Positions 32,037 to 48,377 of a stretch of DNA of 64,000 nt are shown piece by piece. The first letter of the stretch is position 1; each line of letters opens with the position of its first letter. The DNA lies in the NCBI GenBank assembly GCA_021790385.1, contig JAJYDW010000002.1:7551-71550 (forward strand), read 5' to 3'. Source of the stretch: Planctomycetota bacterium (GTDB lineage: Bacteria; Planctomycetota; Phycisphaerae; WQYP01). The notes beneath the pieces are model-generated. The model was not told the DNA's origin. It made no database searches and was given only the letters and a program-made list of their open reading frames with translations. The translations under genes were made by a program, and so were the position numbers.

Positions 32037-33509
32037 TCATATTTGGCTCATAAGGGACTCGATGTACGTGGCGGGATCATCGGCCTGGAAGAGGATGCCC
32101 AAATCCGCAATCTCTGATTTCGACATGAGATTCCCTTCGCCTTTGGACCACCCAAGACTCGCAAAAGGCGTATTCGACAGAATAAACGCGTGCAGAATCA
32201 GCCCGGTGTTCTGGGCGTCGATAATCCGTTGAATGCGGGGTATTTCGCGCGTGGCGAACTGAATTTTCGGGTCGGCTGGATCAAAATGCAGCAGGCCCTT
32301 GGGGTCCACAAAGGCCAGATGCTGGCGGTCGCCATCCTGCACCCACAGCAGAAAATCGGGGAAAAAGTTGGCCGCCTGGAAGAACCCCAGTCCGGTTACG
32401 GCCTGGTTGCGCAACAGGTAAATCTCCCGCCTGGCGTGTTGCGTACACCACTTCGCCAGGTCTTCCACAAACTGCGCCTCGTATTGATTAAGCGGGACCG
32501 GGCTGATTTTGATCTGGGCGTTTTTGCCGATGTACAGCAGCGGCTGGTATAAATGCCCGGCAAACGGCACCGTGCGCCACCGGCCTCCCCATTGGCTCCA
32601 TGCGGCCAGGGAGTTGGTGTCCAAGGCTGATTTCAGGTCCGCCACGAACTGGCTAATCTGCTGAATCTCCGCTACAGACTCGGCCATATCCGTTGTTTCA
32701 ATGGTATAGTCCTGTTTTTCCAGATCGTCGGCGACGACATCGGCAACCTCGATATAGGGCGCTTCCCACCGGCCACGCACATACCGGTAGAATCGCTCGG
32801 CATAGGCATTTATCAGTTGCTGTGCCATGCGCTGCCACTGCGGCCGGTTTTCATACCGATGCGTTTGCATGTCATCCGCGGTAGCCAGCAATTCATACCA
32901 ATTAACGTCCTGCAATAATTTGAGAATTGCGGTCTTATCGGCGTGCAGCCGATCCAGCCCGCGTACCGCTTTGAATGCTTCCAGACCAAAGAGCAAATCA
33001 TCCATGTCCAGCAATGCGACGTGGAACGCCGTAAGCTGCTGTTGCGGAGATTCTCCGGCCTCGCCGACGGCGGAAGTGATCTGCCTATCTGCGCCGGCGA
33101 TGCCACGAATTCTCGGCAGCCAGTTCAAGCGCGTGCGGTGGCTGCGCAGCCACGCATCTTCCGGGGCGGTGTCATGCGGCGGACGCAGTCGCACCAAGGG
33201 TCCAAGCTTACGGAAAGCATTGCCGCGCTCGATCTGCACGCCGTCAATAACCTCCTTGAGCCGCAGTGTTTTAAGCGTTCTTGTCGGCAAGGTCTTTACG
33301 ACCGGCAAATCCCAGACCTGCTTTTCCATGGCCTCCGGCACTTCGCTGAAAATCCAGTCGCGGAAGGTGTTCATGTAATTGGCTTTAATACCGAACACCT
33401 GCAGTGTTTCCACCTGCCGGAGGTTCTTGGGCGGCCTGGGCTTTTGCGTCAGCACCGACGACCGGCGCAGGCTCACCTGCCTTATCCCCTTTGGTAAAAT
33501 CCCTCTCAA
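32037..33509 (-). CDS. Hypothetical protein with C-terminal PD-(D/E)xK nuclease-like motif
   Basis: 490-aa ORF. The C-terminus reads EIYLL...FFPDFLLWVQDGDRQHLAFVDPKG, i.e. E ... PD-x16-DxK on alternating hydrophobic strands. There are no ATPase or helicase motifs and no adjacent methyltransferase. The start is ambiguous (33509 or 33374). Confidence 0.4.
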   Translation of the reverse strand: MRGILPKGIRQVSLRRSSVLTQKPRPPKNLRQVETLQVFGIKANYMNTFRDWIFSEVPEAMEKQVWDLPVVKTLPTRTLKTLRLKEVIDGVQIERGNAFRKLGPLVRLRPPHDTAPEDAWLRSHRTRLNWLPRIRGIAGADRQITSAVGEAGESPQQQLTAFHVALLDMDDLLFGLEAFKAVRGLDRLHADKTAILKLLQDVNWYELLATADDMQTHRYENRPQWQRMAQQLINAYAERFYRYVRGRWEAPYIEVADVVADDLEKQDYTIETTDMAESVAEIQQISQFVADLKSALDTNSLAAWSQWGGRWRTVPFAGHLYQPLLYIGKNAQIKISPVPLNQYEAQFVEDLAKWCTQHARREIYLLRNQAVTGLGFFQAANFFPDFLLWVQDGDRQHLAFVDPKGLLHFDPADPKIQFATREIPRIQRIIDAQNTGLILHAFILSNTPFASLGWSKGEGNLMSKSEIADLGILFQADDPATYIESLMSQI

Positions 33510-33586
33510 TCGCTAAAAGCCGATAGCTCCGTGGATGCTTGTGAGGAACGGTTGCGATTTTCACCAGTGGCAGCGAGAATGCTGCA

Positions 33587-34828
33587 ATGATACCCAGGCA
33601 CACGCATTATGATGTTATTGTCATCGGGGGCGGTCCGGCCGGCAGTACTGCCGGTACTCTTCTGGCCCGACGCGGATATCGCGTGCTTATTCTAGAAGCG
33701 CAGCGCCATCCCCGCCATCATATTGGCGAGTCTCTGCTGCCGGCCGGAATGCCTGTGCTGGCAGAATTAGGCCTGGACTTAACATTTATGCTCCAACGCC
33801 ATCAGCCAAAATATGGGGCACGGTTTTTTGATCCAAGGGATCAGCGGCTGGAGACGTTTGCGTTTGGGGTGCCAAGCGATCCCGTTCCTCCCGCTTTTAA
33901 CGTCAGCCGCGAGGAATTTGATACCCAGCTTAAGGATGCGGCCGTGGCCGCGGGCTGCGAATTTCTGGAGGATACTCCGGTGGTCCAGGCCGAGGCAGAC
34001 CATCAGCCGATTCGCGTTACGCTTACGGATGGATTGCCGGTTACTGCGGATTTTCTGGTGGACGCTTCCGGCGCGGCGGCCAAACTGACGCGGCAACAGA
34101 GTGGCGTGGAAATGTTGCTGGATTTTGGCAGGTTGGCCATTTATAATTATTTTTCCCATCTGCCGACTGCCCATACCGATGAGCGTGCATATCTGACCAT
34201 GCACCTGATAGAACATGGATGGATATGGTTTATTCCTTTGACCGGTGATCGAACCAGTGTGGGAGTGGTGCTGAAAAAAACAGGCTTGCGGCCGAAGTGC
34301 AGCCCGCAGGAGCAATTTGCCGCGGCGGTTGCGGAAAGTCCCACGCTGGCCGGGCGGCTTAAGCCATTGACAGCACTGGAGCCGTACCGGGTTTGTGCGG
34401 GTTACAGTTATCGTTGTCGGCCTTTGACCTGCCGCTATGGCCTGACGGTTGGTGATGCGGGTGGATTTTTAGATCCAATTTTTTCTAGCGGGGTGTATCT
34501 GGCGCTCATGAGTGCCCAGCGCGGTGCCCAGGCAGTAGCGGAATGTTTAAGCGGCAACACGGCAGAACCGCTGCAGCAATATCGTCAATATATGGCCGAT
34601 GGACTGCACGTGTTTGAGTCATTTGTGCGGCGATTTTATCAGCGTGATTTGGTACGAAATTTATTTTTTGCCCGCCATCAGCCACCGGCCGTACGCGCGG
34701 CCGTGATCTCTATCCTGGCCGGGCATGTGTGGGATCAAACCAATCCGCTGGTTGCGGCTGTGGGGCGAAGCGACGGAAATTCAACCGCCAGCGCCCCGGC
34801 GGCAACGCCGGCAGAGGTTGCAAATTAA
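33587..34828 (+). CDS. FAD-dependent oxidoreductase of the flavin-dependent halogenase family (WxWxIP motif present)
   Basis: 413 aa. Rossmann dinucleotide motif DVIVIGGGPAGS; the motif HGWIWFIPL (WxWxIP); GDAGGFLDPIFSSGV (GD-motif); and a candidate Lys in KYGARF. Confidence 0.65.
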   Translation: MIPRHTHYDVIVIGGGPAGSTAGTLLARRGYRVLILEAQRHPRHHIGESLLPAGMPVLAELGLDLTFMLQRHQPKYGARFFDPRDQRLETFAFGVPSDPVPPAFNVSREEFDTQLKDAAVAAGCEFLEDTPVVQAEADHQPIRVTLTDGLPVTADFLVDASGAAAKLTRQQSGVEMLLDFGRLAIYNYFSHLPTAHTDERAYLTMHLIEHGWIWFIPLTGDRTSVGVVLKKTGLRPKCSPQEQFAAAVAESPTLAGRLKPLTALEPYRVCAGYSYRCRPLTCRYGLTVGDAGGFLDPIFSSGVYLALMSAQRGAQAVAECLSGNTAEPLQQYRQYMADGLHVFESFVRRFYQRDLVRNLFFARHQPPAVRAAVISILAGHVWDQTNPLVAAVGRSDGNSTASAPAATPAEVAN

Positions 34829-34874
34829 ATGGCCGGATGCGGGCCGAGGGCAGTTGGCCGCAGCGGATTGATGT

Positions 34875-36149
34875 ATGGATGAAAAGACCTTGCTTACTCC
34901 GGTGGCCGTTACAGGCATGTCCATGATTACGGCGCAGGGAGCGTGTTTGGCGGATTCCTGGGCGGGTATTAGTACTGCGGCAAACGCATTACGGCCGTGG
35001 AATGACGATTCTGATGACAAACTGGGGCGATTGCAGGTGGCCTCGTGCGGAGAGTTGCGGTGTCCGGCGGATATGCCAGCTAAGCTCTGGGCCGGGCTGG
35101 CGCGAACGCAACAGTTGGCGGCTCTGGCGGCCGACGAGGCCCTGACCAGCGCGGGGTTGCCGCGGCGATTGGCCCCGTCGTCCAGACCGATGGGGCTGTT
35201 TCTGGCCACCACTGTATGCGGCATGGATAAAAATGAGCAATTTTACCGGCAATATCGGCAGAATCCGCAGATGGCGAATTCCCGGCTGATGCGGCGCATT
35301 CAATCTTATGAAGTTCTGACTTTTATTGCCCGCCGGCATCGCCTGAACGGCCCGCGAATATTGTTTTTGAGTACGTGCGTAGGATCGTCTATGGCGATTG
35401 GTGCAGCGTGCGATGCCATTCGTCTGGGGCGTGTGGATATTGCACTGGCGGGCGGTGCGGAAGCACTGTGTCGGTTGCTGTTGTCAGGCTTCAACAGCCT
35501 GCGGCTGGTGGCACCCAATGGATGCCAACCCTTTGATGCACATCGCCCGGGCATTACCGTGGGTGAGGGGGCGGCACTGCTGGTTTTGGAATCTGCCGCC
35601 CACGCCAAGGCTCGCGGGGCCAAACCGATAGGATATGTGCGCGGCTTTGCGGCCACATGCGATGCCCACCATATTACCGCTCCGGAACCCGGCGGGCACT
35701 GGGCTGCATCAGCTATTCAGGCCGCGGTTGAAAAGTCAGGTTTAATGCCCGGCGACATCGGATATGTCAATGCGCACGGTACCGGTACGCGCGATAACGA
35801 TGCCATGGAGGCCAAAGCCATTCCCACGGCATTTGAAGCACTTGACGCGGCAGTTCCACCGGTCAGTTCCACCAAGCGGCTGACCGGGCACACCTTTGCC
35901 GCAGCCGGTGCGATTGAAGCGGCGATCTGCCTGCAGGCTATGGCCACGGGCATATTGCCGCCCAACGCGGGACTTGCAGAGCCGGACTCTGCCTGCCAAC
36001 TACCGCTGGTTTTGCAGTCACGGCCGGCGCGGACGAATGCGGCGATTTCGTGTAATTTTGCCTTCGGTGGCAACAACACGGCGCTGGTCTTTTCCCGGCA
36101 TATCGAAACGGGACGTGGCGGCATGGTGGGGAAAGGAGCGATGGAATGA
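34875..36149 (+). CDS. Beta-ketoacyl-ACP synthase (FabF/KAS-II-like, Cys-His-His triad)
   Basis: 424 aa. Active-site Cys in LSTCVGSS, and two catalytic His in ATCDAHHITAP and YVNAHGTGT. A thiolase fold is predicted. Confidence 0.8.
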   Translation: MDEKTLLTPVAVTGMSMITAQGACLADSWAGISTAANALRPWNDDSDDKLGRLQVASCGELRCPADMPAKLWAGLARTQQLAALAADEALTSAGLPRRLAPSSRPMGLFLATTVCGMDKNEQFYRQYRQNPQMANSRLMRRIQSYEVLTFIARRHRLNGPRILFLSTCVGSSMAIGAACDAIRLGRVDIALAGGAEALCRLLLSGFNSLRLVAPNGCQPFDAHRPGITVGEGAALLVLESAAHAKARGAKPIGYVRGFAATCDAHHITAPEPGGHWAASAIQAAVEKSGLMPGDIGYVNAHGTGTRDNDAMEAKAIPTAFEALDAAVPPVSSTKRLTGHTFAAAGAIEAAICLQAMATGILPPNAGLAEPDSACQLPLVLQSRPARTNAAISCNFAFGGNNTALVFSRHIETGRGGMVGKGAME

Positions 36150-37069
36150 GTTTGCTGCATATCCACTCGCTGGGTATTTGCACCAGTACATGGCCGTCGA
36201 TAGGCCAGCTTCGAAAAGCCATTGCCTTAGGCCAAGGGCATGGCGAAACCGGCTCCGGCGATGAGGTTGCCAGGCAGAAAAAGCCAGGTGATGCGGCGAT
36301 GGTTGAAAGTATGGATGCGGTGAGTCGATGGGCGATTGGGGCAATAACCGAGGCCTGGCAGGGAGCGTCTCTGGATCAAGGCATTGTGCCGACCGACCGC
36401 ATTGCCCTGCTTTTGTACAGCGCGTGGGGACAGGTGGATTCCACAGTTACGTATCTGGAAAGCATGTGGGGTGATGGCGGACGATTTGCTTCGCCGCGGC
36501 ACTTTACGCGTTCGGTACATTCGAGTCCGACATCTTTGGCCGCAATTCATTTTGGCATCCACGGTCCGTGCCAGACGCTGGTGCATGATGCGTGGCCGGT
36601 GTGTTCGGTGCTGGAGCAGGCCGATGATTTATTGAATGCCGACCGGGCAGATACGGTAATTGTATGCTGGGCAGATCAGCCATCGGCGGTAGCGACGGAA
36701 TTGTGCCGGCGTGCCGCAGAGGATCTGCATCGAGCCCAATTTGCCCGTTTTGCCGGCGGAGATTCTCACGGCGGAGCTGTTGCGGCGGTGGTCAGCATCA
36801 ACGCGATATTACCGGGTGCAGAGTTTGGGGTGGAGGTTGGTCCGGTGGCAGCTAACAAGAAGTCAGTGGGGGCCGGTGCGGTGGTAGAACAGGGTGCGTA
36901 TCCTACAGATGGAGCGCTGCATTGGGCGGCGGCAGGTGTGGCATGGTCGCTGGCGGCGGCAAAGGCGGAGGGCAAAGCGCTGCCGGCGGCAGCAGATTAT
37001 TGGCGGGAAAGCGGACACCATGGACAAATGCGGGAGGTGAGATTTTGCCGGGTGGCGGCCCGCGAGTGA
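36146..37069 (+). CDS. Ketosynthase-like protein lacking the active-site Cys (chain-length-factor-like partner)
   Basis: 307 aa. It overlaps the upstream KS gene by 4 nt (ATGA). The position of the KS active-site Cys reads LYSAWGQV instead, with no Cys-His-His triad, but KS-like N-terminal fold motifs remain. Confidence 0.55.
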   Translation: MSLLHIHSLGICTSTWPSIGQLRKAIALGQGHGETGSGDEVARQKKPGDAAMVESMDAVSRWAIGAITEAWQGASLDQGIVPTDRIALLLYSAWGQVDSTVTYLESMWGDGGRFASPRHFTRSVHSSPTSLAAIHFGIHGPCQTLVHDAWPVCSVLEQADDLLNADRADTVIVCWADQPSAVATELCRRAAEDLHRAQFARFAGGDSHGGAVAAVVSINAILPGAEFGVEVGPVAANKKSVGAGAVVEQGAYPTDGALHWAAAGVAWSLAAAKAEGKALPAAADYWRESGHHGQMREVRFCRVAARE

Positions 37070-37202
37070 GGTGAACAGTAGCGCAGGGAACGCGGAGAAC
37101 GGGAGATTGAATAACGGATTGGAGATTTAAGCTTGGTATGGGGGTGGCGGGAATTTAGTCAGGCTTTACAATGACCGGTGTTGAACCCGGTGGGGATTTT
37201 TC

Positions 37203-37877
37203 ATGGAAATGATTGTAGTAAGTATCGGGACTCTTTCGCAAAATCCGTTCTGGCAGGAAAATAGTCCTGTACGCACGCCGCACGCCACCACCAGCCTGGT
37301 ACGGCAAAATGATCGGGTGATACTGGTGGATCCATCGCTGCCAGCACAGGCCCTGGAAGCCCGCATTGCGGAACGAGCCGGCATTAAGGCGGCAGCAGTT
37401 ACGGATGTATTTTTGACCAACTGGCGGCCGGCGCATCGTCGGGCGCTAAAGGCATTTTCCCATGCATCCTGGTGGATGCTGGAGCGTGAAATTCAGGCGG
37501 CCGGGGAAGTTTTGGAACAGGCAGCCACACATGCGCCGGCGAAATCCGAAGAGCGTGCAGTGATTCAAGATGAACAGTCGCTGTTATCGCGCGTGCAGGC
37601 CGCACCGGATAAATTTACGCAGGGCGTGGGCATTTTTCCCCTGCCGGGATACACGCCGGGCCAGTGCGGTCTGCTTTTGGAACTGCCTGCCAGCACCGTG
37701 GTGATAGCCGGCGATGCGGTAGCCACGGCGTCGCATTTTGCTTCCGGTCGCGTACTTTCCGGGTGCTTTGACCTGAATCAGGCACAGGAATCTTTGATGG
37801 AATTGTACAATCTCGCTGATTTAATTGTGCCGGGTCACGACAATATATTTGTCAACCCGCGCACTGCGGGTTTTTAA
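37203..37877 (+). CDS. Metallo-beta-lactamase-fold protein with degenerate metal-binding motif
   Basis: 224 aa. The secondary pattern fits the MBL fold (ILVDPS ... GYTPGQCGLL ... VIAGDAV ... PGHD). The canonical HxHxDH is replaced by TNWRPAH. Confidence 0.5.
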   Translation: MEMIVVSIGTLSQNPFWQENSPVRTPHATTSLVRQNDRVILVDPSLPAQALEARIAERAGIKAAAVTDVFLTNWRPAHRRALKAFSHASWWMLEREIQAAGEVLEQAATHAPAKSEERAVIQDEQSLLSRVQAAPDKFTQGVGIFPLPGYTPGQCGLLLELPASTVVIAGDAVATASHFASGRVLSGCFDLNQAQESLMELYNLADLIVPGHDNIFVNPRTAGF

Positions 37878-37943
37878 CCACATTGTCGTGTGCCAATATC
37901 GTCCAGAGTGCCCGTGGTATGACCATTGAGCCGCATTTTCTGG

Positions 37944-39464
37944 TTACGGATGGTGCTGCGCTGCGGGCAGATGCCGGAAGTTTGGTTCCGGCAGAAGCGT
38001 GGCGGTGGCCACACGTATGACCTTGACGACAGCACCGCCGGTAACTACGCCTTTAATGCCGATGTACTCGCCCAGCAACCGGGATAAATCAATGCGAGAA
38101 CTGGGATCGATATACGCACTGACGCGGCCATTAGCGGGGTTTACCAGGGCATATTTGGTTTTCAGCACGGTGCTGGTTCGCAGCACGCCCTTGGCCACAT
38201 AAGGAGCATGGTCGATGGCTTCGGCAATCTGCTGCTGCGATTCCTGCCACTGTTGCTGGTATGGGGCGATGACCTTGCTTACCGGAGGTGTGCTAGCAGA
38301 GGATTTCACCAGTTCCTGAATGGCGATATCTTTTTTGAGATCATGGATGCGAGCAGCCACACCCTGCTTAATCCAGGCGGGTGCACTGGCCACGGCGGCA
38401 AGCTGCTGATAGCCATGGAGCAACGGTTTAAGCTGTCGCTGAAGCAGCGGTTTTTGGAATTCCAACTGCATGGTTCGGTTCAGGCTGCTGAATTTGGTAA
38501 ATAAGCTAACGTTAGCGGAATTGGGGGTGGTCGCCGTCGGCGGCAGGGGCGATACCGCCACGACTGTGCCGGAATTACCCGAATTGGAGCCAGTTTCCGG
38601 CAGCGGGACCGTCTGACCCGGCGGAAGGGTGTTGGGCTGGGTGGTCACGCTGGAAGAGGTATTGCCGGAAGACGAAGGGAGTACGGCGGAGTTGCCGGTG
38701 GACAACGATGCGGCCAATGTGGCCCCTTTGAAACCTGCGGGCATTTTTAACTTAGGGGCGAGGTATTGAGCATCTGCACCGGCTGAGGTTACGAATTTGG
38801 CCAACACATATACATGGGCACCATGCGGCGGCTGGATGACATAAAAACTTGGTGTGCTGCCGACAATATGAACATGGGTGCCGCGAGACACGACTTTCAC
38901 GACGGCATAATCGGACCGTGGGGCCAGACGACTGGCGGCACGCACAAAAACGTATTTGGCGGAAACCCGGCCTTGGGTGGTGTCTGATCCAACATGGACG
39001 AATTTTTTGGCGATGTAACAAAGCGTGCCGACAGGAGGATCAATGGCGTCCCAGCCGTTGCGGGAGCCGACGACATTTACCATATCTCCGGTGGTCAGTT
39101 GTCCTAAAGCATAATAAGCCAAGCCGGGGCCGCTGCGGATATTGACATTACTGGTGTTAATGGAACCGACGGCACCGCTAAGGGGTATCTTGGCCTTGAC
39201 TTTTTTGGCCGTTTTGGCCGGCTGCGTCTGCGCGGCTTGGCGCGTTGTGGGTGCCGGCGCGGTAGTGCTAAGGGGTGGCAGGCCGGAGACCGCGGGCACA
39301 GGCACGGTAACGCTGGGCACGGTTGCGCCGGGTGCCGCGGGCTTAGAGCCGACGGGCGGTGCTGACGCGGCCAGGCTGACTGAGCCACAGGACAGCACAC
39401 CAGTCAGAACGGTCACTGCCAATAGTTTTTTTTGATGACCAAAAGCAGATAAACTTAATTGCAT
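37944..39464 (-). CDS. Secreted SH3b-domain protein, hypothetical
   Basis: It has a signal peptide (MQLSLSAF...LAASAPP), an AAGGAG ribosome-binding site 6 nt before the ATG, and a bacterial SH3 motif (NVNIRSGPGLAYYALGQLTTGDMVNVVG.RNGWDAI). The remainder is Pro/Ser/Thr-rich. Confidence 0.6.
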   Translation of the reverse strand: MQLSLSAFGHQKKLLAVTVLTGVLSCGSVSLAASAPPVGSKPAAPGATVPSVTVPVPAVSGLPPLSTTAPAPTTRQAAQTQPAKTAKKVKAKIPLSGAVGSINTSNVNIRSGPGLAYYALGQLTTGDMVNVVGSRNGWDAIDPPVGTLCYIAKKFVHVGSDTTQGRVSAKYVFVRAASRLAPRSDYAVVKVVSRGTHVHIVGSTPSFYVIQPPHGAHVYVLAKFVTSAGADAQYLAPKLKMPAGFKGATLAASLSTGNSAVLPSSSGNTSSSVTTQPNTLPPGQTVPLPETGSNSGNSGTVVAVSPLPPTATTPNSANVSLFTKFSSLNRTMQLEFQKPLLQRQLKPLLHGYQQLAAVASAPAWIKQGVAARIHDLKKDIAIQELVKSSASTPPVSKVIAPYQQQWQESQQQIAEAIDHAPYVAKGVLRTSTVLKTKYALVNPANGRVSAYIDPSSRIDLSRLLGEYIGIKGVVTGGAVVKVIRVATATLLPEPNFRHLPAAQHHP

Positions 39465-39767: not shown

Positions 39768-41540
39768 CTATCGAGGCAACCCCTTGGCAGGCGGACGGCG
39801 GTGAGAGTCCACGAATTTGGCGACATCCCAGGCTTGTTGATCGGTCAGGCTGCCAGGTTTGTTGTAGGGCATATTTGCTTTGATGAAAGCGGCGGCCATT
39901 TTGACTTTAGCCATTCCCGCACCCATGTTGTAAGAATGGGGCCCCCACAGCGGAGGATAGACGTAGCGCCCATTGGTCAGCAATCCCTGACCGTGGCTTT
40001 GATGGCAAACGACGCAATTTTGGGTGAACGTGACGCGGCCACGGCTGGTACTGGGCGGCAGGGCAGCGGGCGTGAGAAATTTGTAGCCGCGGCCCGGCAG
40101 GTTGGTGCCTACTGTGGCACCCGTAGCGAGCCAGGCTGCATAGCTGGTCAGGGCGGTGATGACCTTGCCGTCGGCGGGTGGAGACTTGCCGTTCATGCTG
40201 GCGAGAAAACATTCCTGCAGCCGCTTTTGAAAGGTTACCACGCCGCGAGCCTTGGCCTGATATCGCGGGTAGATTACATACGCCGCCCACAGCGGAGCTG
40301 AATAGGCCAGCCGGCCGCTCTGGAGGTGGCAATTCATGCAGCTTAATCCATTACCAACGTACTTTGGGGCGTACGTGCGAGTGTGATCAAATATATTACG
40401 GCCCAGGATTATCATCTTGCCGAATCGCCCGTGCGGCATTTGTGATTCCGGTGGCGGGCTGAATATGGCAGACAGTTCATGCTTCAGTGCCGAAACCTTC
40501 GGTGTTGCCGGATCAAGCGATTGGGCGGTAACTTTCAACGGCCGAAAGCCGTACCGATCAAAGATGGCCTGGGCGGTGGGCGACCGGAGGAACTGGAGCC
40601 ATTCCATGGCCGCTTTGGGATGTTGAGCGTTTCGGACCACCGCACCGGCGTAAATGGCGGTCGTGTTGTATCTGGAGGGAATTGGTACGTAGGAAATGGG
40701 GTGGCCGATTTGCTTTTGAAAGATCGCCTCTGATTTCCATGTGACACCCGCCACCACCAGCCCCTGCATTAAAAACAGGGGTGTCTGGCGGTGGTGAATG
40801 TGCGTAAGAATGGTCTGGCCGTCGGCAACCTTGCTCTGATAAACCCTCTTTTCCAGGGCCGGTCCGCCGGCTTTTTTCAGTGAAAGTTGAATCTGCCGGG
40901 CTACGCCTTCCCATGCGGGATTGGGCATGGCCAACCGCACGCCGGGCTTGCCCAGATCAGAAAGCGTGCGGATATGCCCCGGGTTGCCGCGCGGTACCAT
41001 AATGGCCAGATCGTTAGTGGTATAGCTGATCACCGGGCCGCGCAAAATACCAGCGTGAATTAACGCCTGGATTTTGAGCTTTCCGGCGGCATACACATCG
41101 GGTCGGGCAGTCCAGGTCATATTGCCGACGGTAATGGTACCACCGGCCTTTATTTGCCGGAGCAGAATGCCGGGCGGCAACGTTTCAGCGTAAACTTTTC
41201 CTTTCAGCCGTGGATGAAGTTTCTCAAACGCCACAACCAGCGGAGCTACGGCAAAATAATAGTTGCCGCCGATATATAAAACGAGCCGGGCGTTGAAGGG
41301 ATCTCCATGGAAATCGGCCAGATCATCTACTTCCGGAACGGTAAACCGCAAACCCTGGTGAACGGCGGAATTATTCTTTCCGCCGCCCCACGGCGGAAAG
41401 ATCCGTTCCTGATAGACCGGCGGCTGGGCATGGCCATGCCAACCTGAGGTAGCAGCCTGTGTGTTTGATAACGTCAGCAGACCTGCCGCCAAAATCGCGG
41501 CCAGTACCATGATAAATCCGATGAATCGCACGGATGACAT
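39768..41540 (-). CDS. Fusion protein: N-terminal ModA-like periplasmic oxyanion-binding domain + C-terminal TsdA-like diheme cytochrome c
   Basis: The start has an AAGGAG ribosome-binding site 6 nt upstream of the ATG at 41540, followed by a signal anchor. The N-terminal half (LVLYIGGNYYFAVAPLVVAFEKLHPRLKGKVYAETLPPGILLRQIKAGG...) has a ModA/WtpA-type PBP fold. The C-terminal half has two CxxCH motifs (CMNCH, CVVCH), a conserved Cys about 38 residues after heme 1 (RLQECFLASMNG) and PPLWGPHSYNMGAGM, all matching thiosulfate dehydrogenase TsdA. Confidence 0.7.
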   Translation of the reverse strand: MSSVRFIGFIMVLAAILAAGLLTLSNTQAATSGWHGHAQPPVYQERIFPPWGGGKNNSAVHQGLRFTVPEVDDLADFHGDPFNARLVLYIGGNYYFAVAPLVVAFEKLHPRLKGKVYAETLPPGILLRQIKAGGTITVGNMTWTARPDVYAAGKLKIQALIHAGILRGPVISYTTNDLAIMVPRGNPGHIRTLSDLGKPGVRLAMPNPAWEGVARQIQLSLKKAGGPALEKRVYQSKVADGQTILTHIHHRQTPLFLMQGLVVAGVTWKSEAIFQKQIGHPISYVPIPSRYNTTAIYAGAVVRNAQHPKAAMEWLQFLRSPTAQAIFDRYGFRPLKVTAQSLDPATPKVSALKHELSAIFSPPPESQMPHGRFGKMIILGRNIFDHTRTYAPKYVGNGLSCMNCHLQSGRLAYSAPLWAAYVIYPRYQAKARGVVTFQKRLQECFLASMNGKSPPADGKVITALTSYAAWLATGATVGTNLPGRGYKFLTPAALPPSTSRGRVTFTQNCVVCHQSHGQGLLTNGRYVYPPLWGPHSYNMGAGMAKVKMAAAFIKANMPYNKPGSLTDQQAWDVAKFVDSHRRPPAKGLPR

Positions 41541-41550
41541 ATCCAACTCC

Positions 41551-42375
41551 TTACTTGATGTACTCATAGCCTGCGAGTTGCAATTCCGGAATCGTCGCGA
41601 CAATACCCGGAGTAAGCACAACTCCCGGAATCAGGTGGTTGGTAAGGTCTGCAGCGAGAGCCTCATGGGTAAGGTGGTCGGGATTATGGCCCTTGGCCAT
41701 GAGAGCATGAGAAAATTCCCAGATGGCATTGTGGCAGGCTAAAAACACGGTTCCGCGTTCCATCAGCAGTGGTATGCAATTGGCACTTGGGGAAAATAAT
41801 CCAAGCGGATTGTTAAAATCTGCGGGAGATTTGCCTTTTGCGCCGGCGGGGATATCGAGAAACACGTTGCGTTTGAATTTCTTGCCGATCATGGCCGGCA
41901 GATTGTACTTTTCCCAGATGTGCTGCTGGAACAGGGCCAGGTGACAGGTGCCATGATTAGCGGACACCGCCAGAAAATTTGGATGCTTAAAGGACCATAC
42001 TTGAGCGTTGGTGGCGTTACGCATGAGATTGAGCCAGGGACTGCCAATATCGGTGTTATCCCACACCTGCCTGGGGCCTCCGTGATAGGTGAGCAGCAGG
42101 TTCAGGGCTTCGTAGTCCCACTGTTGCGGTTCGGTAAGAATCATGGGAACGGTTTTGAAATTTCTGTGCCGTGGTGCCTGGGCCAGGGCGACCGAGAGAT
42201 CCTTGAGGTTTTTGGCACCACGCGGTTCGAGCGGAGCGGCCATTGGAGCCGCTGAGGCGGCGGCACCGGGCAAAGCCAGAAGCGCCGCTCCGGCAATTCC
42301 GCCTTTGGCCAGCCATGCCAGCATTTTTCGTCGGGGCATTGGGGTTTCCAACAGAGTAACGGGATGGTCTTTCAT
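41551..42375 (-). CDS. Hypothetical Tat-secreted protein with conserved Cys/His (co-transcribed with PBP-TsdA fusion)
   Basis: 274 aa. An AAGGAG sits 6 nt before the ATG. It has a twin-arginine-like signal (MPRRKMLAWLAKGGIAGAALLALPGAAAS) and Cys in HGTCHLALF and FLACHNAIWE. It ends 10 nt before the downstream gene. Confidence 0.5.
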   Translation of the reverse strand: MKDHPVTLLETPMPRRKMLAWLAKGGIAGAALLALPGAAASAAPMAAPLEPRGAKNLKDLSVALAQAPRHRNFKTVPMILTEPQQWDYEALNLLLTYHGGPRQVWDNTDIGSPWLNLMRNATNAQVWSFKHPNFLAVSANHGTCHLALFQQHIWEKYNLPAMIGKKFKRNVFLDIPAGAKGKSPADFNNPLGLFSPSANCIPLLMERGTVFLACHNAIWEFSHALMAKGHNPDHLTHEALAADLTNHLIPGVVLTPGIVATIPELQLAGYEYIK

Positions 42376-42647
42376 GGGGAACTCCTTAAAAAAAGAAACA
42401 ACATCTCGCTGCATGTCGTGCAACTTTGAGCACAAGCCAATCGGCTTATTCGCAACATCAATCCGCCCTCCATCCACCATCGGTCACAGTCAGACGACCG
42501 TTGGTAGATGACACACAATTGTACGCTACTGGTAGTACATAATGGAAATACATATTTTTTATATGAAGGATATATTTTTGTTATGTATCAACCCGGTGGG
42601 CCGGTGTATTGCACCTGGTGAAAGCCGGTATTGAAGGGCTGTAAACT

Positions 42648-44582
42648 TTACGCGTGACTGTCCGCTTTGGCTTGCAAATCGGCAATAGCATGCATGATGC
42701 GGACGGTACACTGTTCCAGAGCAGACTGGTCAGGCTGGCGGGAGGAAATGTCGGTAAATCGCAGAGGCGCTCCATAATACAGCCGGACTTTGCCGGGCCG
42801 CAGGAAATCCCATAATCTGCGGCGATGCCTGTGCGATGAATGTACGTATACGGGTACCACCGGTGCCCCACTCATCAGGGCCAATGCCGCAATTGCCGGA
42901 TGGGGCAGCTGCAGCAGGCCGGATTCAGCAATGAAGCCATCGGGAAAGATTCCCACCACGTTGCCGCTGCGCAAGGCTCGCAAGGCGGACCGAAAGCCTG
43001 CTGCAGAGGTCGATCCTCGATTGACTGGTATGGCGTGGCTGCAACGCAGCAGCGAGCCTAAGAAAACGTTCTGATAGGATTTTTGGGCAAAGATAAGGCG
43101 GATAAACCTCCGCGGACTGCTGATCAATAAAGCCACAGGATCGAGCCTGCTGCGTTGATTAGCGGCAACAATCACCGGGCCGTGGGCGGGAATGCGGCAT
43201 GGGCCGATTTGCCGGTACCCATGCCATACCACCATATAGGCCCGCAAAATCCGCAAAGCAATGGCCTGGCCCGGCGGCAGAGCCTTGCCGCGGTAATAAA
43301 TAATCACCAGCCCTATGCCCAGCAACAGCGAAACGGATCCCATGGCGTAGATCAGTTTTACCACCAGCACATTGATGCTGGGGAGCAGCGCCATGGGAAC
43401 GGTCATGGCAATAAGCCCGGCGGTGGTTACCAGATCCCGCACGCCCATCACCCGGCCGCGCATAAAATCTGGCACAATGCGTTGCAGCAGGGTGTCGACA
43501 CTGATAAACATGATGGATCCAAAACATGCCGCCACCATCAGCCACAGCACCATGACCGGCCAGCTTTGGGCATGAGCGGCCAACAGCAGGCCGATGCCCA
43601 GCAGCACCACCGACCATCCAATACCGATTTCCTTGGGAATATTCTGTTTGGCGCGGCTAAGGGCTAAGGCCCCGGCAATCATTCCCAGGCCGGTCAGGGC
43701 CATGGTGAAATACAAATACCGCGAATCCAGGTGAAAACGTCTGTGTACCAGACTGGGCAGACTGTTGAGAATAGCCGTGCTGATGGCGAAAAAGCCCAGT
43801 TCCAAAGCTATAACCTGAAGCGGTCGCGAGTGGCGCTGCAGATAGCCCACGCCCTGTTGCAAGCTCGCCCGAATGGTGGGGCCGCGTGTGGCCGGAGCCG
43901 GTTGATCCACCCCGGGCGGGAGCCGCATAGTTATCACACAGACCGCGGAGATACAGTAAGTAACCGCGTCTACATACATGGCGTAGGATAGATTGCGGGT
44001 AACCAGCCACCCCCCCACCAGAAAGCCGATCAAGGTTACAATCGTGCCTGCGGGGTTGATCCAGGCGTTGGCCTGCAGCAATTGCCGGGGATGAACCAGG
44101 TTGGGCAAAATCGCCGCGCGTGCCGGCGAAAACATTTCCCCGAAGATGGACAGCACCACTTCAGAGCCAAACAGCAGCCAGAGCAATTGCGGTACGGACA
44201 TCCAGCGTTCCATGGCTCCGGCCAGCAGCACGGTTCGCGCGATAACCACCAGCACCGCGCGGGCCAGATCACAGGAAATCATGATGCGGCGCCGGGGGAT
44301 GCGATCGGCGACAATGCCGGCCAGGGGGGCCAGGAGAAAAAACGGCAGAAACATGGCCAGATTGAGCTGGGCAAAATGCTGTGAATCCACCGCCTGCTGC
44401 CGCAGAATCACGATGCACAGCAACTGCAGCATCACCAGAAAGTGCACCCGGTCTCCCAGTACGGAAACCACATAGGAACCAAACAGCAGCAAATAATTAC
44501 GATTGCGGGCCAGCGGCGGGAAGTGTTCCAGAAGAGGTGTCTGAGCCTTGCCAGAGTTGATTGTGCCCCGGCCTTGCGCCAT
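42648..44582 (-). CDS. MFS transporter (LplT-like) fused to C-terminal PlsC-type acyltransferase domain with His->Gln in HX4D
   Basis: 644 aa. The N-terminal portion (roughly 400 aa) has about 12 TM segments and MFS motifs (VADRIPRRR). The C-terminal PlsC domain carries block I VAANQRSRLDP (aligning with VANHQSYID, so the His is replaced by Gln) and block III IFPDGF. Confidence 0.7.
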   Translation of the reverse strand: MAQGRGTINSGKAQTPLLEHFPPLARNRNYLLLFGSYVVSVLGDRVHFLVMLQLLCIVILRQQAVDSQHFAQLNLAMFLPFFLLAPLAGIVADRIPRRRIMISCDLARAVLVVIARTVLLAGAMERWMSVPQLLWLLFGSEVVLSIFGEMFSPARAAILPNLVHPRQLLQANAWINPAGTIVTLIGFLVGGWLVTRNLSYAMYVDAVTYCISAVCVITMRLPPGVDQPAPATRGPTIRASLQQGVGYLQRHSRPLQVIALELGFFAISTAILNSLPSLVHRRFHLDSRYLYFTMALTGLGMIAGALALSRAKQNIPKEIGIGWSVVLLGIGLLLAAHAQSWPVMVLWLMVAACFGSIMFISVDTLLQRIVPDFMRGRVMGVRDLVTTAGLIAMTVPMALLPSINVLVVKLIYAMGSVSLLLGIGLVIIYYRGKALPPGQAIALRILRAYMVVWHGYRQIGPCRIPAHGPVIVAANQRSRLDPVALLISSPRRFIRLIFAQKSYQNVFLGSLLRCSHAIPVNRGSTSAAGFRSALRALRSGNVVGIFPDGFIAESGLLQLPHPAIAALALMSGAPVVPVYVHSSHRHRRRLWDFLRPGKVRLYYGAPLRFTDISSRQPDQSALEQCTVRIMHAIADLQAKADSHA

Positions 44583-44657: not shown

Positions 44658-47600
44658 TCACGGGTCTCCGCGGAAACCGGCGATGACTTGGTTGGTGAGG
44701 CTGACCGTACGGGCCGGCGTGCGGGATCGGGTGTCAGACTTGCCGGCGGCAATGGCGCGCTGCAATTCGCGCACCCGATTCTGGGAAAGTTCCATTTTCG
44801 GATAGCGCACCTCGCGAAAACCGGTTACCGATTCCGGTGAGCGGAGAATATCCAGCCAGAGGTTGTACAGCCATGGTTCGTGAAGTTCGCAGGTATCCAC
44901 CAGGCGGGTGTACCAATCGCGGTAGCCCTTTTCACGGGCATGCCAGGATGGCAACAAAGCCCGCATCCAGCGGCAATGCCGGAGAATACGCATTTGCCAG
45001 TCCCGCCCCTTGATATGAAAGCGGATTTTGACGCCGCCAATTTCAAACTCAGGTTGATTGAGATGCAGGTATTTAATTTTATCGCCATTGGCGGGGTTGA
45101 CATTGTAGCGGCGGCGATCGCGCCGGTATTTTTCCGGGCTGGTATAGAGCATAGCTACGTATACTTCATCCTTAATCATCATCACCCTGGCGAGATTCCA
45201 GATCACGGCGCGGGTAACGGCGAAATTTCGCTCGGCATGGTCCTGCTGGTAGGTTTTCACGATCCGGGAGGCATAGCTGCGGCCGTAGGGCAACGTGCCC
45301 CATTGAATGGCATCGAAAAGGCGAATGACATAGTCGCGGCGGGCGGCGTCATCCAGTTGGGGCATCTGATCCAGGGTGGTGCGGCACAGGCGGCGATAAA
45401 GTGTAGCATTGCGGCGGCCCCAGAGCGAACTTACGGTGAGGATATTGGCCTTGCGCTCGATGGCCTGATCGACCGTTTCCACCTGGCGCGGTGCCGCGAC
45501 GCCGAAAAGATCGGGCCGCAGCACAATTTTCCGGCCGATATTGAAAGCCCGGTAATTGCGTTCAAATTCTCTGCGTACCGCGTGGCGAATGGCCCAGGTG
45601 ATGCTTTTGTAGGATACGGGAATAAAGCCCAACTGGTAGGCCACTCCCAGCATCATGATGTTGGCGTAGAGCTTGGAATCGAGCAGGCGTTCGCACAGAT
45701 CGCCGACATTAAAACTGAAGAACCGCCCCGGTTTGCACTGCTTAAGGATGATTTGCGCGAGGTCTTCGGGGGAAAAATCATCACGGCCCAGCAGGGTCAG
45801 AATTGTGGGTGTTTTGCCCGTGTTCACCACAGCGTGGGTATATTTGGGCGAGGCCACGCGAAGATAATCCACAGGCGATATGGCGCGGGCAGCTTCGACG
45901 GCATCGACACCAATGAGCAAGTCCGCCTTGCCAAACGGAGTGATGGCTGAGCCATGAACCGGCTGACGGGAAAAGAGCAGTTGGCTGAACACCCCGCCGT
46001 TGCGGATCGCCAGACCTTTCTTATCCACAAACGCAATCTGGTAACCTTCCTTATGGCCGGCGCGAACCAGAATTTCACCGGCAACACCAATACCCATGCC
46101 ACCCACTCCAGCGAGATAACAACGCCATTGATCGCGCATTTTCATGGCGGGCGGCTCGGGCATGCCGGTTAAGTCCACCACTTCATCGGACATGCGCGGC
46201 GGTCGTTTGCGGGTAACAATGACCTGTTCAAAACTCGGACAGGCATGAATGCGCGAACAGGCCTGGTCGTTCACACAGGTGGTAAAGTCGGTCTGTATTT
46301 TTGGGCCGTAGTCGGTGTCCGTTATTTTTAAGGCAGGACAGCCGGTCTGGTTGGTGCATTCCAGGCAATATTCGCACACTTCATCGGTAACATTCATGTA
46401 GGATTTTTGGCGTACAAAGCCGTGGTCCTTTTTTTCCGCCACTTCCGCCCGGTGTTTCCGGCGGTTGAAGGTGATGCCGCATTCTTTATCGGCGATAACC
46501 ACTTTGACGCCGTCTTCCAGGATCACCCGCTCCAGCGTGTCGCGGTATTCTTCGCGGTTGGCCGGGTTCATGCGTATAACCCGGCCCTGCGGCACGATAC
46601 GGCCATCCTTGCGTTTCATGCCCAGGGGGCCGGCGGCATCGGGAATGATGGCCCGGACAATGCGCTCAATATCGTGGGAAAGCACCGTTTGGCCCACAAT
46701 GTCCTGCGCCATGGTGGGATTGGGTTGATGGCCGGTCATGGCGGTGGTTTTGTTTTCCAGGATGATGTACGTGATATCCTGGCCCTGGTTGATGGAATTG
46801 GCAATGGCCAACTGGCCGGAATGGAAAAACGTGCCATCGCCCATGAATACCAGTTGTTTGTTGCTGATGAATGGATCGACGCCGCCGCCGGTGGCTCCGC
46901 CCAAGCCCATGCCGCTGTAGTTATGCATGAGTGGCTTGTTGGGTTCAAACATCATCATGGTATAGCAGCCGGTATCGCCATGTGCGACCAGATCCATCGG
47001 ACCGCGGCCATATTGATCCTGCATGTACCTGGGGTCCAGCAGGCGTCTGCGAATTTCCAATAACGCGCTGGATGAATCGCGATGCGGGCAACCGGGGCAA
47101 TACGCCGGTGTGCGCACGGGCACGGTCATTTGGACCTGGCTGGCCAGGGCAATGGTTTCCAATTCTTCCGTCAGCCGCCCATTGGATAGCTCGTGGGGAA
47201 TATTAGGTGTATCGCGTAGGAATTTCGTCAGCAGTTCGATGAGAATAGAGGGATGGAGTCCACGGGTGGAAGGAATGCCCGGGGTTTTACCGGGAAAATT
47301 TTTACCCCATAGCTCCACGCGTGCACTGGCATGTTCCGGATCGGCCTGGCGGCGTTGGGTGAGATATTCCGTTACCTGTTTTTCAATAAAACTGCGCCGT
47401 TCTTCCACCACGATAATGCGTTCGCACATGGCCGCAAGTTCGTCGACCAGCGTTGTATCTACCGGATAACTGATGGCCAGTTTGAGCAGGGGGAACTGGC
47501 CTAAAAGCCCCATTTCACTCAAGGCATGAGCCAGCATGGTATGGGACATTCCGGAGGCAATAAAGCCCACCGGGCAGCGTTGCGAACGCCCGCCGCGCCA

Positions 47601-48377
47601 ACTGCGTTCAATGGGGTATAAAATCCGCGACAGGCCCAGTTCCCGACAGCGGGCCAGCAGGGCCTTGAAGCGATCATCAAAAGTCAGTTCCTGCCGCCAA
47701 CTGCGTGGTGGCAGAAGAACCGTTGTTTCCACAGGAATCTTACCTGTATCAATGGCAATGCGGGCGTTGGTAGAGATGGTGGGCCACTGGTTGGGCCGGC
47801 ATTCCACCGTGCCGCCGCCGTCACCCAGGGCCACCGTAACCATCATGCCCACGTATAATTTGGAGGCCACGGATAGATCAAACGCCTGGGCCACCCAATC
47901 TTTGAGTTCCTGCGGATTAGAGGGTTCCATCACCGGAACGCGCAGATGTTCAAACAAAAACCGGGAATCGGCGGGAACCTGGGTGGAATCGCTCCATGGA
48001 TCATCACCTGATACTACCACTGCCCCGCCGGTGGCATGCGGAATACCGGCCAGACTGCCCAATGCCAGAGCGTCTGCCGCGACATGCAGACCCACGGATT
48101 TAAATACCGCGATGGCCTTCACCCCCACCATCTGCGAGCCGTTGAGCATGGCTACACTGATAGCCTCATTATTGGCCATCTTGGCGCAGACGCCCTTTTC
48201 CGTCAGCAATTCGCCGATGTCCTGGCAGGAATCGAAAAACCCGGCCAACGGAGAGCCGGGGTAGCCTGTAAGCAAGGCAACACCACCAGGTGTTTCCAGG
48301 CAGCCCTTGAGCAAAAGCTCTGAACCGCCGAAGATTTCGGTACCACCTTCAACCAAATATCGAGGGTCAATTTTCAT
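44658..48377 (-). CDS. Indolepyruvate:ferredoxin oxidoreductase family protein (fused IorA/IorB type 2-oxoacid:ferredoxin oxidoreductase)
   Basis: 1239 aa. It has TPP-binding motifs, a ferredoxin-like Cys cluster region (CPGCPH...) and a C-terminal IorB-like domain. The size is typical of fused Ior proteins. Confidence 0.8.
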   Translation of the reverse strand: MKIDPRYLVEGGTEIFGGSELLLKGCLETPGGVALLTGYPGSPLAGFFDSCQDIGELLTEKGVCAKMANNEAISVAMLNGSQMVGVKAIAVFKSVGLHVAADALALGSLAGIPHATGGAVVVSGDDPWSDSTQVPADSRFLFEHLRVPVMEPSNPQELKDWVAQAFDLSVASKLYVGMMVTVALGDGGGTVECRPNQWPTISTNARIAIDTGKIPVETTVLLPPRSWRQELTFDDRFKALLARCRELGLSRILYPIERSWRGGRSQRCPVGFIASGMSHTMLAHALSEMGLLGQFPLLKLAISYPVDTTLVDELAAMCERIIVVEERRSFIEKQVTEYLTQRRQADPEHASARVELWGKNFPGKTPGIPSTRGLHPSILIELLTKFLRDTPNIPHELSNGRLTEELETIALASQVQMTVPVRTPAYCPGCPHRDSSSALLEIRRRLLDPRYMQDQYGRGPMDLVAHGDTGCYTMMMFEPNKPLMHNYSGMGLGGATGGGVDPFISNKQLVFMGDGTFFHSGQLAIANSINQGQDITYIILENKTTAMTGHQPNPTMAQDIVGQTVLSHDIERIVRAIIPDAAGPLGMKRKDGRIVPQGRVIRMNPANREEYRDTLERVILEDGVKVVIADKECGITFNRRKHRAEVAEKKDHGFVRQKSYMNVTDEVCEYCLECTNQTGCPALKITDTDYGPKIQTDFTTCVNDQACSRIHACPSFEQVIVTRKRPPRMSDEVVDLTGMPEPPAMKMRDQWRCYLAGVGGMGIGVAGEILVRAGHKEGYQIAFVDKKGLAIRNGGVFSQLLFSRQPVHGSAITPFGKADLLIGVDAVEAARAISPVDYLRVASPKYTHAVVNTGKTPTILTLLGRDDFSPEDLAQIILKQCKPGRFFSFNVGDLCERLLDSKLYANIMMLGVAYQLGFIPVSYKSITWAIRHAVRREFERNYRAFNIGRKIVLRPDLFGVAAPRQVETVDQAIERKANILTVSSLWGRRNATLYRRLCRTTLDQMPQLDDAARRDYVIRLFDAIQWGTLPYGRSYASRIVKTYQQDHAERNFAVTRAVIWNLARVMMIKDEVYVAMLYTSPEKYRRDRRRYNVNPANGDKIKYLHLNQPEFEIGGVKIRFHIKGRDWQMRILRHCRWMRALLPSWHAREKGYRDWYTRLVDTCELHEPWLYNLWLDILRSPESVTGFREVRYPKMELSQNRVRELQRAIAAGKSDTRSRTPARTVSLTNQVIAGFRGDP

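Follow-up and report, generated by a model that had tools for sequence, protein, structure and literature searches.

Aryl-polyene (APE) type gene clusters are among the most widespread families of bacterial biosynthetic clusters, and they are normally self-contained, bringing with them their own acyl carrier proteins (ACPs), ketoreductase (KR) and dehydratases (DHs). At the heart of the clusters of E. coli CFT073 and Xenorhabdus is ApeO:ApeC, in which an active FabF-like ketosynthase (KS) is matched with a short partner of the PF13723 family that lacks the active-site Cys. A comparable core is found in Xanthomonas and Lysobacter, in which the KS (ORF17) is followed immediately downstream by a "novel chain-length factor (CLF)" (ORF16) and is flanked by a halogenase and a Dol-P-Man-synthase-like glycosyltransferase (PMC3691225). 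The locus described here lies at positions 33587-37877 of a 64,000-nucleotide stretch of DNA ("the window") from a planctomycete of the class Phycisphaerae (contig JAJYDW010000002.1 of assembly GCA_021790385.1), and comprises genes for a halogenase-family flavoprotein (FLAV), a KS, a Cys-less KS-like protein (KSL) and a protein of the metallo-beta-lactamase fold (MBL). Our analyses suggest that it is probably the detached core of an aryl-polyene/xanthomonadin-type type II polyketide-lipid pathway, vertically inherited in one lineage of the Phycisphaerae, and that the trio FLAV-KS-KSL most likely amounts to a KS:CLF heterodimer and a tailoring halogenase working with carrier and reducing enzymes that come from elsewhere.

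The layout of the locus had been proposed in an earlier reading made without database searches (the sequence-only reading), which placed four co-oriented genes on the + strand with coordinates that were exact:

33587-34828, + strand: FLAV gene, 413 aa, Pfam Trp_halogenase
34875-36149, + strand: KS gene, 424 aa, Pfam ketoacyl-synt N and C domains
36146-37069, + strand: KSL gene, 307 aa, weak N-terminal ketoacyl-synt Pfam match
37203-37877, + strand: MBL gene, 224 aa, Pfam Lactamase_B

The ATGA overlap that had been noted between KS and KSL can be read directly at 36146-36149, where the stop codon of the one and the start codon of the other are shared. The suggestion that these genes belong with aryl-polyene, xanthomonadin and flexirubin-type clusters has held for the families to which KS, KSL and FLAV were assigned, but not for MBL, which had been counted as a member of the cassette. 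The conserved unit is the trio FLAV-KS-KSL. It is not a chance grouping, since tblastn mapping of gene contexts in relatives placed it at no fewer than 13 independent loci of the Phycisphaerae, whose flanks differ. All four genes, MBL included, are under purifying selection, the ratio of nonsynonymous to synonymous substitution rates (dN/dS) being 0.09-0.34 against orthologues diverged to a dS of ~1, and none is a pseudogene; a pseudogene reading of KSL and MBL was rejected on these ratios.

Judged from its protein families, the trio would be a variant of the aryl-polyene/xanthomonadin core without that pathway's carrier, reductase and dehydratase genes. The likeness to the Xanthomonas/Lysobacter core lies in the halogenase, the KS, the shortened CLF directly downstream of it and a family 2 glycosyltransferase (GT2), the last being present in the window's relatives and not in the window, whereas clusters of that type also encode an ACP, KR, two DHs, starter-unit synthesis and export, which the window does not. 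The likeness to E. coli and Xenorhabdus extends from the ApeO:ApeC arrangement itself to ApeJ, homologues of whose GT2 and acyltransferase parts are carried by relatives of the trio. In E. coli, however, the apeO and apeC genes are not adjacent, and its cluster has two ACPs, a KR, two DHs, an AMP-ligase, a thioesterase, MMPL and LolA, none of which occurs in the window.

The three proteins of the conserved unit

FLAV matched Pfam Trp_halogenase at 1e-29, and its best solved relatives were halogenases (8zop, ChlB4, CmlS, CndH, Bmp2, PltA and Mpy16, at E-values of 5e-47 to 2e-39), together with the uncharacterised flavoprotein 3nix. The hallmarks by which it had first been recognised as a halogenase-family flavoprotein are all present: the motifs GGGPAG (residues 14-19), GWIWFIP (residues 211-217) and GDAGGFLDPIFSSG are invariant, or conservatively varied at x positions, in 59 of 59 orthologues. 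The three Gly of the first motif are found in all 57 orthologues that cover the site (there is a gap in 2 of the 59), and W212, W214, I216 and P217 of the second are invariant in the full set, as are K75 and the stretch GDAxGFLDPxFSSG. K75 aligned with residue 76 of CndH and with chain residue 91 of CmlS (native K71 after a 20-residue tag); CndH K76, CmlS K71 and PrnA K79 are described in the literature as the catalytic lysines of those halogenases. With CndH, CmlS, Bmp2 and PltA the protein shares GxGxxG, WxWxIP, the catalytic Lys and FxDPxFSxG, its length (413 aa) is close to that of Bmp2 (409 aa), and it appears to be a short flavin-dependent halogenase-family protein of the CndH/CmlS/Bmp2 type, i.e., of the carrier-substrate "variant B" group. 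Its best pairwise alignments with these enzymes are highly significant, yet reach an identity of ~40% by eye, and it differs from the group in scoring below the CmlS equivalog cut-off and in having no flavin reductase or carrier gene adjacent.

Those scores leave some room for FLAV to be something other than a halogenase, namely a hydroxylase or reductase of the same superfamily (like QhpG, LodB or geranylgeranyl reductase (GGR)), in which case the product would be oxidised or reduced and not halogenated. FLAV falls under all of the NCBIfam equivalog cut-offs (CmlS, NF033113, 161.5 bits against 900; QhpG, 137 against 240; GGR, 125 against 159), with QhpG and GGR lying near CmlS in bits, and 3nix, one of its best structural relatives, is uncharacterised. 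On the other hand, the halogenase-specific motifs, WxWxIP and the Lys matched to CndH K76 and CmlS K71 among them, are all present and invariant in the 59 orthologues, and the solved halogenases are ~30 orders of magnitude ahead of solved GGR (3oz2, 1e-12) or QhpG (7ctq, 3e-10) as matches. We consider a non-halogenating FLAV to be very improbable. A grouping with GGRs and the loss of the catalytic Lys had been named by the sequence-only reading as outcomes at odds with its hypothesis; in the event the halogenases scored far better than GGR and the Lys is kept, and the GGR reading of FLAV was rejected on both scores and motifs. The nearest relatives of FLAV outside the Phycisphaerae (38-39% identity) sit in canonical aryl-polyene/xanthomonadin clusters, one of which (L044, in a Nannocystaceae genome) has MMPL, DUF3261, KS, a PF13723 CLF, an ApeP-like DH and KR, and the other (L045) an ACP, an AMP-ligase, an LpxL acyltransferase, LolA, MMPL and a XanB2-like chorismatase, a further point of likeness to the xanthomonadin system.

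The KS had been described as FabF-like with an intact Cys/His/His triad, a description borne out by the alignment of its C168, H301, K334, H339 and F397 with C163, H303, K335, H340 and F400 of E. coli FabF. All 74 family members keep the Cys and the two His, and 73 keep the Lys and the gatekeeper Phe; dN/dS for this gene is 0.13-0.21. It is nevertheless no ordinary FabF: its score against the FabF equivalog TIGR03150 was 273.7 bits, where the cut-off is 493.75, and its identity to the acpP-linked FabF of another planctomycete (L026) is 31%. In a neighbour-joining tree (Kimura distances, 200 bootstraps) with the E. coli CFT073 aryl-polyene cluster and E. coli fabF and fabB as references, the Phycisphaerae KS family formed a clade with 100% bootstrap and grouped with ApeO, with the second KS of locus L020 (KS2) and with the fused KS-CLF proteins of complete APE-like clusters (L027). 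E. coli FabF and the L026 FabF formed a separate clade that excluded the KS at 93-94% bootstrap, so that the clustering with housekeeping FabF against which the sequence-only reading had cautioned was not seen. A sister KS of yet another planctomycete sits in a full APE-like cluster (L046). The KS is thus best regarded, on its residues and placement, as a catalytically intact beta-ketoacyl synthase of the aryl-polyene (ApeO-like) radiation.

KSL was correctly described as a KS-like protein missing the active-site Cys: the position is occupied by Ala (in the stretch HDAWP), and in other members of the family by His, Arg, Glu or Asn, but never by Gln. The Gln at the KS Cys position by which KS-beta subunits of type II polyketide synthases are recognised is absent from KSL. 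ORF16, for its part, has an essential conserved Gln (PMC3691225), and the KSL family is variable at the position aligned with the KS Cys. KSL is also without the His-His half of a KS, and is longer than ApeC (307 aa against 240 aa), to which it has only distant similarity. Its AlphaFold model, built from 14 sequences, had a predicted local distance difference test score (pLDDT) of 75 and a predicted template-modelling score (pTM) of 0.79, and matched FabF and the chain-length factors Iga12, AntE and Act CLF at TM-scores of ~0.55-0.6. PF13723, the ApeC family, was matched by 14 of 19 members of the KSL family, two of which (P0014, 39 bits, and P0011, 27 bits) passed the gathering cut-off of 25, E. 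coli ApeC itself scoring 225 bits. It is from this Pfam result, and not from a weak profile comparison with a single ApeC, that the link between KSL and ApeC is drawn.

That KSL works with the KS is suggested by more than the overlap of their genes, since natural KS::KSL fusions exist among the relatives (P0020, P0067 and P0080), with residues 489-724 of P0020 matching KSL residues 55-296 at 45% identity. The dN/dS of KSL is 0.21-0.34. Homologues are few, 14 having been found among 5.8 billion proteins, and KSL loci numbered 16, in Phycisphaerae, among 185,579 species genomes, and nine in a metagenome collection; the possibility raised in the sequence-only reading that KSL is a FabF pseudo-paralogue common to the phylum is not borne out by such numbers. 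KSL may best be viewed as a truncated, Cys-less partner of KS fold, analogous to the chain-length factor ApeC and presumably coupled in translation to the KS, and its family as a candidate rare Phycisphaerae branch of the ApeC family.

The trio among housekeeping genes

The window is identical in sequence to contig DAHZYF010000116.1 of the metagenome-assembled genome (MAG) GCA_027435935.1, and its close relatives are all Planctomycetota/Phycisphaerae MAGs. The remainder of the 64 kb is given over to housekeeping genes (rpoD, dnaG, aspS, pyruvate kinase, isocitrate dehydrogenase, mutL, ppx, aroB, DAHP synthase and dprA). No ACP was found in it when three ACP sequences were searched by phmmer against the six-frame translation, and the open reading frames (ORFs) of the window that were scanned for domains included no KR, no DH (of ApeI/ApeP type or otherwise), no malonyl or acyl transferase for chain building and no genes for starter supply or activation (AMP-ligase, chorismatase). 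Nor did tblastn find in the window ApeJ-type GT2/DUF2062, LpxL-type acyltransferase or MMPL/LolA export genes. The earlier statement that ACP, KR, DH and acyltransferase are lacking is therefore correct for chain-building genes, across at least 64 kb.

In a second clade of relatives the trio lies in the order mutL-ppx-cobO-nadD-[trio]-ispF-ruvC-rmuC, in which cobO is not constant, and the window keeps the mutL-ppx part of this arrangement. The shared mutL-ppx-nadD-ispF-ruvC synteny argues for vertical inheritance of the trio within a core-genome neighbourhood, and this neighbourhood is a vertically inherited housekeeping one and not a biosynthetic island. A promoter and terminator scan of 33300-38200 gave sites no more numerous than in shuffled sequence, and the boundaries of the operon were judged by spacing and synteny alone.

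What follows KSL varies among the relatives. In five Phycisphaerae lineages the gene directly after it encodes a radical S-adenosylmethionine (SAM) protein of the KamA (lysine-2,3-aminomutase-like) family:

L020, 10975-12165: KamA-like radical SAM gene
L021, 11005-12237: KamA-like radical SAM gene
L028, 12080-13303: KamA-like radical SAM gene
L037, 2433-2993: KamA-like radical SAM gene
L039, 12105-13265: KamA-like radical SAM gene

The best NCBIfam matches of these proteins, AblA_like_2 and EpmB at ~117 bits, are under the cut-offs, and a search of the literature gave no report of a KamA-like enzyme in clusters of aryl-polyene type. At L039 the operon extends to six genes, FLAV-KS-KSL followed by the radical SAM gene, a GT2/DUF2062 gene and a gene for an LpxL-like acyltransferase, and the products of the last two match, respectively, the N- and C-terminal halves of E. 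coli ApeJ. GT2 and acyltransferase genes stand directly downstream in L020 also, and the contigs of L021 and L032 end within or just after GT2. None of these radical SAM, GT2 and acyltransferase genes is in the window.

One Phycisphaerales genome has two KS/KSL pairs 7 kb apart (L020:8709-20260). The first, which is without FLAV, continues with the radical SAM, GT2 and LpxL-like acyltransferase genes, and the second set consists of an ACP, a PlsC acyltransferase, a polysaccharide deacetylase, KS2-KSL2 and an AMP-ligase. The ACP lies ~4 kb downstream, in the adjoining APE-like cluster. In the trio loci themselves phmmer found no ACP, and across ~25 related loci, the six-gene L039 among them, ACP, KR and DH are never part of the operon itself.

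A proposed pathway and its competitors

A heterodimer of KS and KSL, equivalent to ApeO:ApeC, is proposed on the basis of the ATGA overlap and the natural KS::KSL fusions. Its chemistry would reside in the KS, via Cys168, His301 and His339, and the shortened, Cys-less KSL would shape the substrate tunnel. The pair would extend a starter bound to a carrier protein with malonyl-ACP, the carrier protein, KR and DH being supplied in trans, most likely by the housekeeping type II fatty-acid synthase (FAS II), from which the sequence-only reading had likewise proposed borrowing, a source that we favour because none of the ~25 related loci has an ACP, KR or DH of its own at the cassette. FLAV, with reduced flavin, O2 and halide, would halogenate an electron-rich carbon of the tethered intermediate by means of Lys75; for the FLAV relatives in xanthomonadin-type clusters the substrate is assumed to be the aryl head group. 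In sister lineages the operon continues with the KamA-like radical SAM gene and the ApeJ-like glycosyltransferase and acyltransferase genes, from which we infer a membrane-anchored lipid as the product there. In the clade of the window those genes are not adjacent, and the gene of a conserved MBL-fold protein without most of its metal ligands comes after KSL in their stead.

Several observations weigh against an aryl-polyene-type core. The KSL of the window does not itself match PF13723 at E < 0.01 and so does not reach the threshold, and a profile of its family against E. coli ApeC alone gave only a probability of 1.4% and an E-value of 0.035. The node that joins the KS family to the APE-type KS has just 75% bootstrap in the neighbour-joining tree. 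Every other defining gene of an aryl-polyene cluster is missing from the window, some lineages (L005, L019 and L040) have KS-KSL without the flavoprotein, and a housekeeping neighbourhood is unusual for a secondary-metabolite cluster. The host, moreover, is uncultured.

Two other pathways deserve to be set beside the one we favour. The trio might be a single fragment of a dispersed but complete APE-like pathway, with its dedicated ACPs, KR, DH, starter-activating ligase, anchor-attachment genes and exporter elsewhere in the genome and nothing borrowed from FAS II. The L020 genome makes this a serious rival, in that an orthologous KS-KSL pair there directly adjoins a second APE-like set with an ACP of its own; full APE-like clusters do exist in other Planctomycetota, as at L046, and our view of the genome spans 64 kb. 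Yet the operon never includes ACP, KR or DH in any of the ~25 related loci, even where it has grown to six genes as in L039, and the second L020 set brings a KS and a KSL of its own and may therefore belong to a separate pathway. A dispersed dedicated pathway is possible, but we doubt it.

Less likely than either a dispersed pathway or one that borrows from FAS II is a primary role in fatty-acid synthesis, in which KS:KSL would be a lineage-specific part of the machinery for membrane fatty acids (acting in initiation or in some special elongation) and the flavoprotein an optional modifier. The precedent is the amxFabF2:amxFabFmut pair of anammox bacteria, a KS and an inactive paralogue in a lipid pathway of Planctomycetota, with a flavoprotein and a radical SAM enzyme nearby as in the KS/KSL lineage (bioRxiv 10.64898/2026.05.19.726425). 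The best solved match of both KS and KSL was indeed a single entry, 9s5h, through its chains B and C (202 bits for KS and 39.5 bits for the KSL profile). Chain C has no active-site Cys, the residue there being apparently Val when the alignment is read by eye, and its sequence, together with the preprint (bioRxiv 10.64898/2026.05.19.726425), indicates that 9s5h is probably the anammox heterodimer, although a literature search for the code 9S5H found nothing. The setting of the trio among the core genes mutL, ppx, nadD, ispF and ruvC in conserved synteny, the lack of a dedicated ACP, KR or DH found with it, and the retention of KS-KSL alone in some lineages are all in keeping with a primary role. 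However, the KS is well under the FabF equivalog cut-off and stands apart from the FabF of both E. coli and Planctomycetota, the KS/KSL family is rare and not class-wide, and its genomic associations are with ApeJ-like GT2 and acyltransferase genes and with a halogenase whose motifs are invariant. In addition, amxFabFmut is a full-length FabF homologue (chain C has 412 residues) whose gene lies upstream of that of its partner, whereas KSL is truncated and lies downstream, and the anammox cluster has its own ACP and FabZ, a flavoprotein of phytoene-desaturase type and a B12-dependent radical SAM enzyme, with no halogenase and no enzyme of KamA type. Given these differences in length and in kind of neighbour, and a match of the KS to 9s5h that is barely above its match to Thermus FabF (196 bits), the anammox pair is better taken as a functional analogy than as an orthologue, and we judge a role in primary fatty-acid synthesis to be improbable. 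A ladderane-type cluster was rejected, its partner genes being different in kind.

If the favoured reading of a detached aryl-polyene/xanthomonadin-type core is right, the window's lineage has kept just the halogenase-KS-CLF core, amid housekeeping genes and under purifying selection. Should this core use the carrier and reductive enzymes of primary FAS, it would be a minimal system for a chain-length factor that redirects the fatty-acid machinery, and, working with FAS, it would point to halogenated lipids in a planctomycete class that is uncultured and environmentally common. A literature search on halogenases in Phycisphaerae returned nothing relevant, and the KamA-like radical SAM partner of the sister lineages makes a gene combination for which no description was found. 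An APE-like pathway specific to the Phycisphaerae can be imagined that joins all of these elements: the halogenase and KS:CLF would operate wholly on the housekeeping carrier and FAS II enzymes, the KamA-type aminomutase of sister lineages would add, or prime with, a beta-amino acid, ApeJ-like enzymes would fix the product to a membrane anchor, and a metal-free MBL pseudo-enzyme would have been recruited in the clade of the window. As a whole this scheme is speculative and we think it unlikely, but if true it would mean a halogenated, possibly amino-functionalised membrane lipid undescribed for any bacterium.

The MBL-fold protein and other neighbours

MBL matched Pfam Lactamase_B at 3e-9, and the profile of its family was closest to OPH/MPH and to the lactonases AiiA, AidB and AttM. 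Its metal site is as degenerate as had been claimed: the HxHxDH motif reads TNWRPAH (N-W-R-P-A-H), the His of the third motif is Tyr150, and the only ligands left are H78, D171 and H212. TNWRPAH is invariant in five orthologues, and the dN/dS of 0.09-0.17 is the lowest of the four genes. MBL thus shares with the lactonase branch (AiiA, AidB, AttM and methyl parathion hydrolase) its fold and closest profile matches, and THxHxDH and PGHTPGH survive in more distant members of its ~220-aa family, but it differs from the di-zinc lactonases in having lost both leading His, the Asp and the third-motif His, which makes a function as a di-zinc hydrolase unlikely. A single-sequence AlphaFold model of the protein was unusable (pLDDT 33.8).

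The degenerate site is not peculiar to the window. In an exhaustive search of 1.84 billion representatives, the closest ~25 clusters (at 50% identity) shared it; these clusters, made up of the window protein and the representatives P0255-P0285, no longer have the first two His of HxHxDH, and the majority lack the Asp and third-motif His too, which is the state of the window protein. The group may be a pseudo-enzyme subfamily.

MBL accompanies the trio only in the closest clade (the window, L004, L007, L008 and L009), which is why its inclusion in the conserved unit was set aside; it is a clade-specific neighbour whose membership in the functional unit is tentative. That it is an unrelated gene, merely co-oriented with the trio, has in our view almost an even chance of being right. 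Elsewhere ispF, radical SAM or other genes follow KSL, a gap of 133 nucleotides separates KSL and MBL, and the degenerate-site subfamily, with at least ~25 clusters at 50% identity, exceeds the four or five trio loci that carry an MBL gene. Against an accidental association are the shared orientation, the lack of a convincing terminator between the two genes, and the retention of MBL beside KSL across loci diverged to a dS of ~1.

Upstream of the trio, and divergent from it across a gap of 77 nucleotides to FLAV, is a 490-aa ORF (32037-33509, - strand) that matches nothing in Pfam or NCBIfam and turned up solely in copies of this genome. Downstream, an ORF within 39768-42480 (- strand) scores 364 bits against the NCBIfam thiosulfate dehydrogenase equivalog NF052225, above its cut-off of 300, and adjoins a gene in which a solute-binding domain is fused to SoxA/TsdA-type and class I cytochrome c domains; together these genes look like a sulfur-oxidation pair in a Phycisphaerae MAG. 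At 42648-44582 (- strand), 5 kb downstream of the cassette, lies a fusion of a major facilitator superfamily (MFS) transporter with a PlsC-type acyltransferase, like LplT/Aas of lysophospholipid recycling, which is the sole lipid acyltransferase of the window, has a counterpart of 81% identity in L008, and is probably unrelated to the cassette. The gene at 44658-48377 (- strand) encodes a protein of 1239 aa that has TPP_enzyme_C, POR and DUF6537 domains and is like a fused 2-oxoacid:ferredoxin oxidoreductase.

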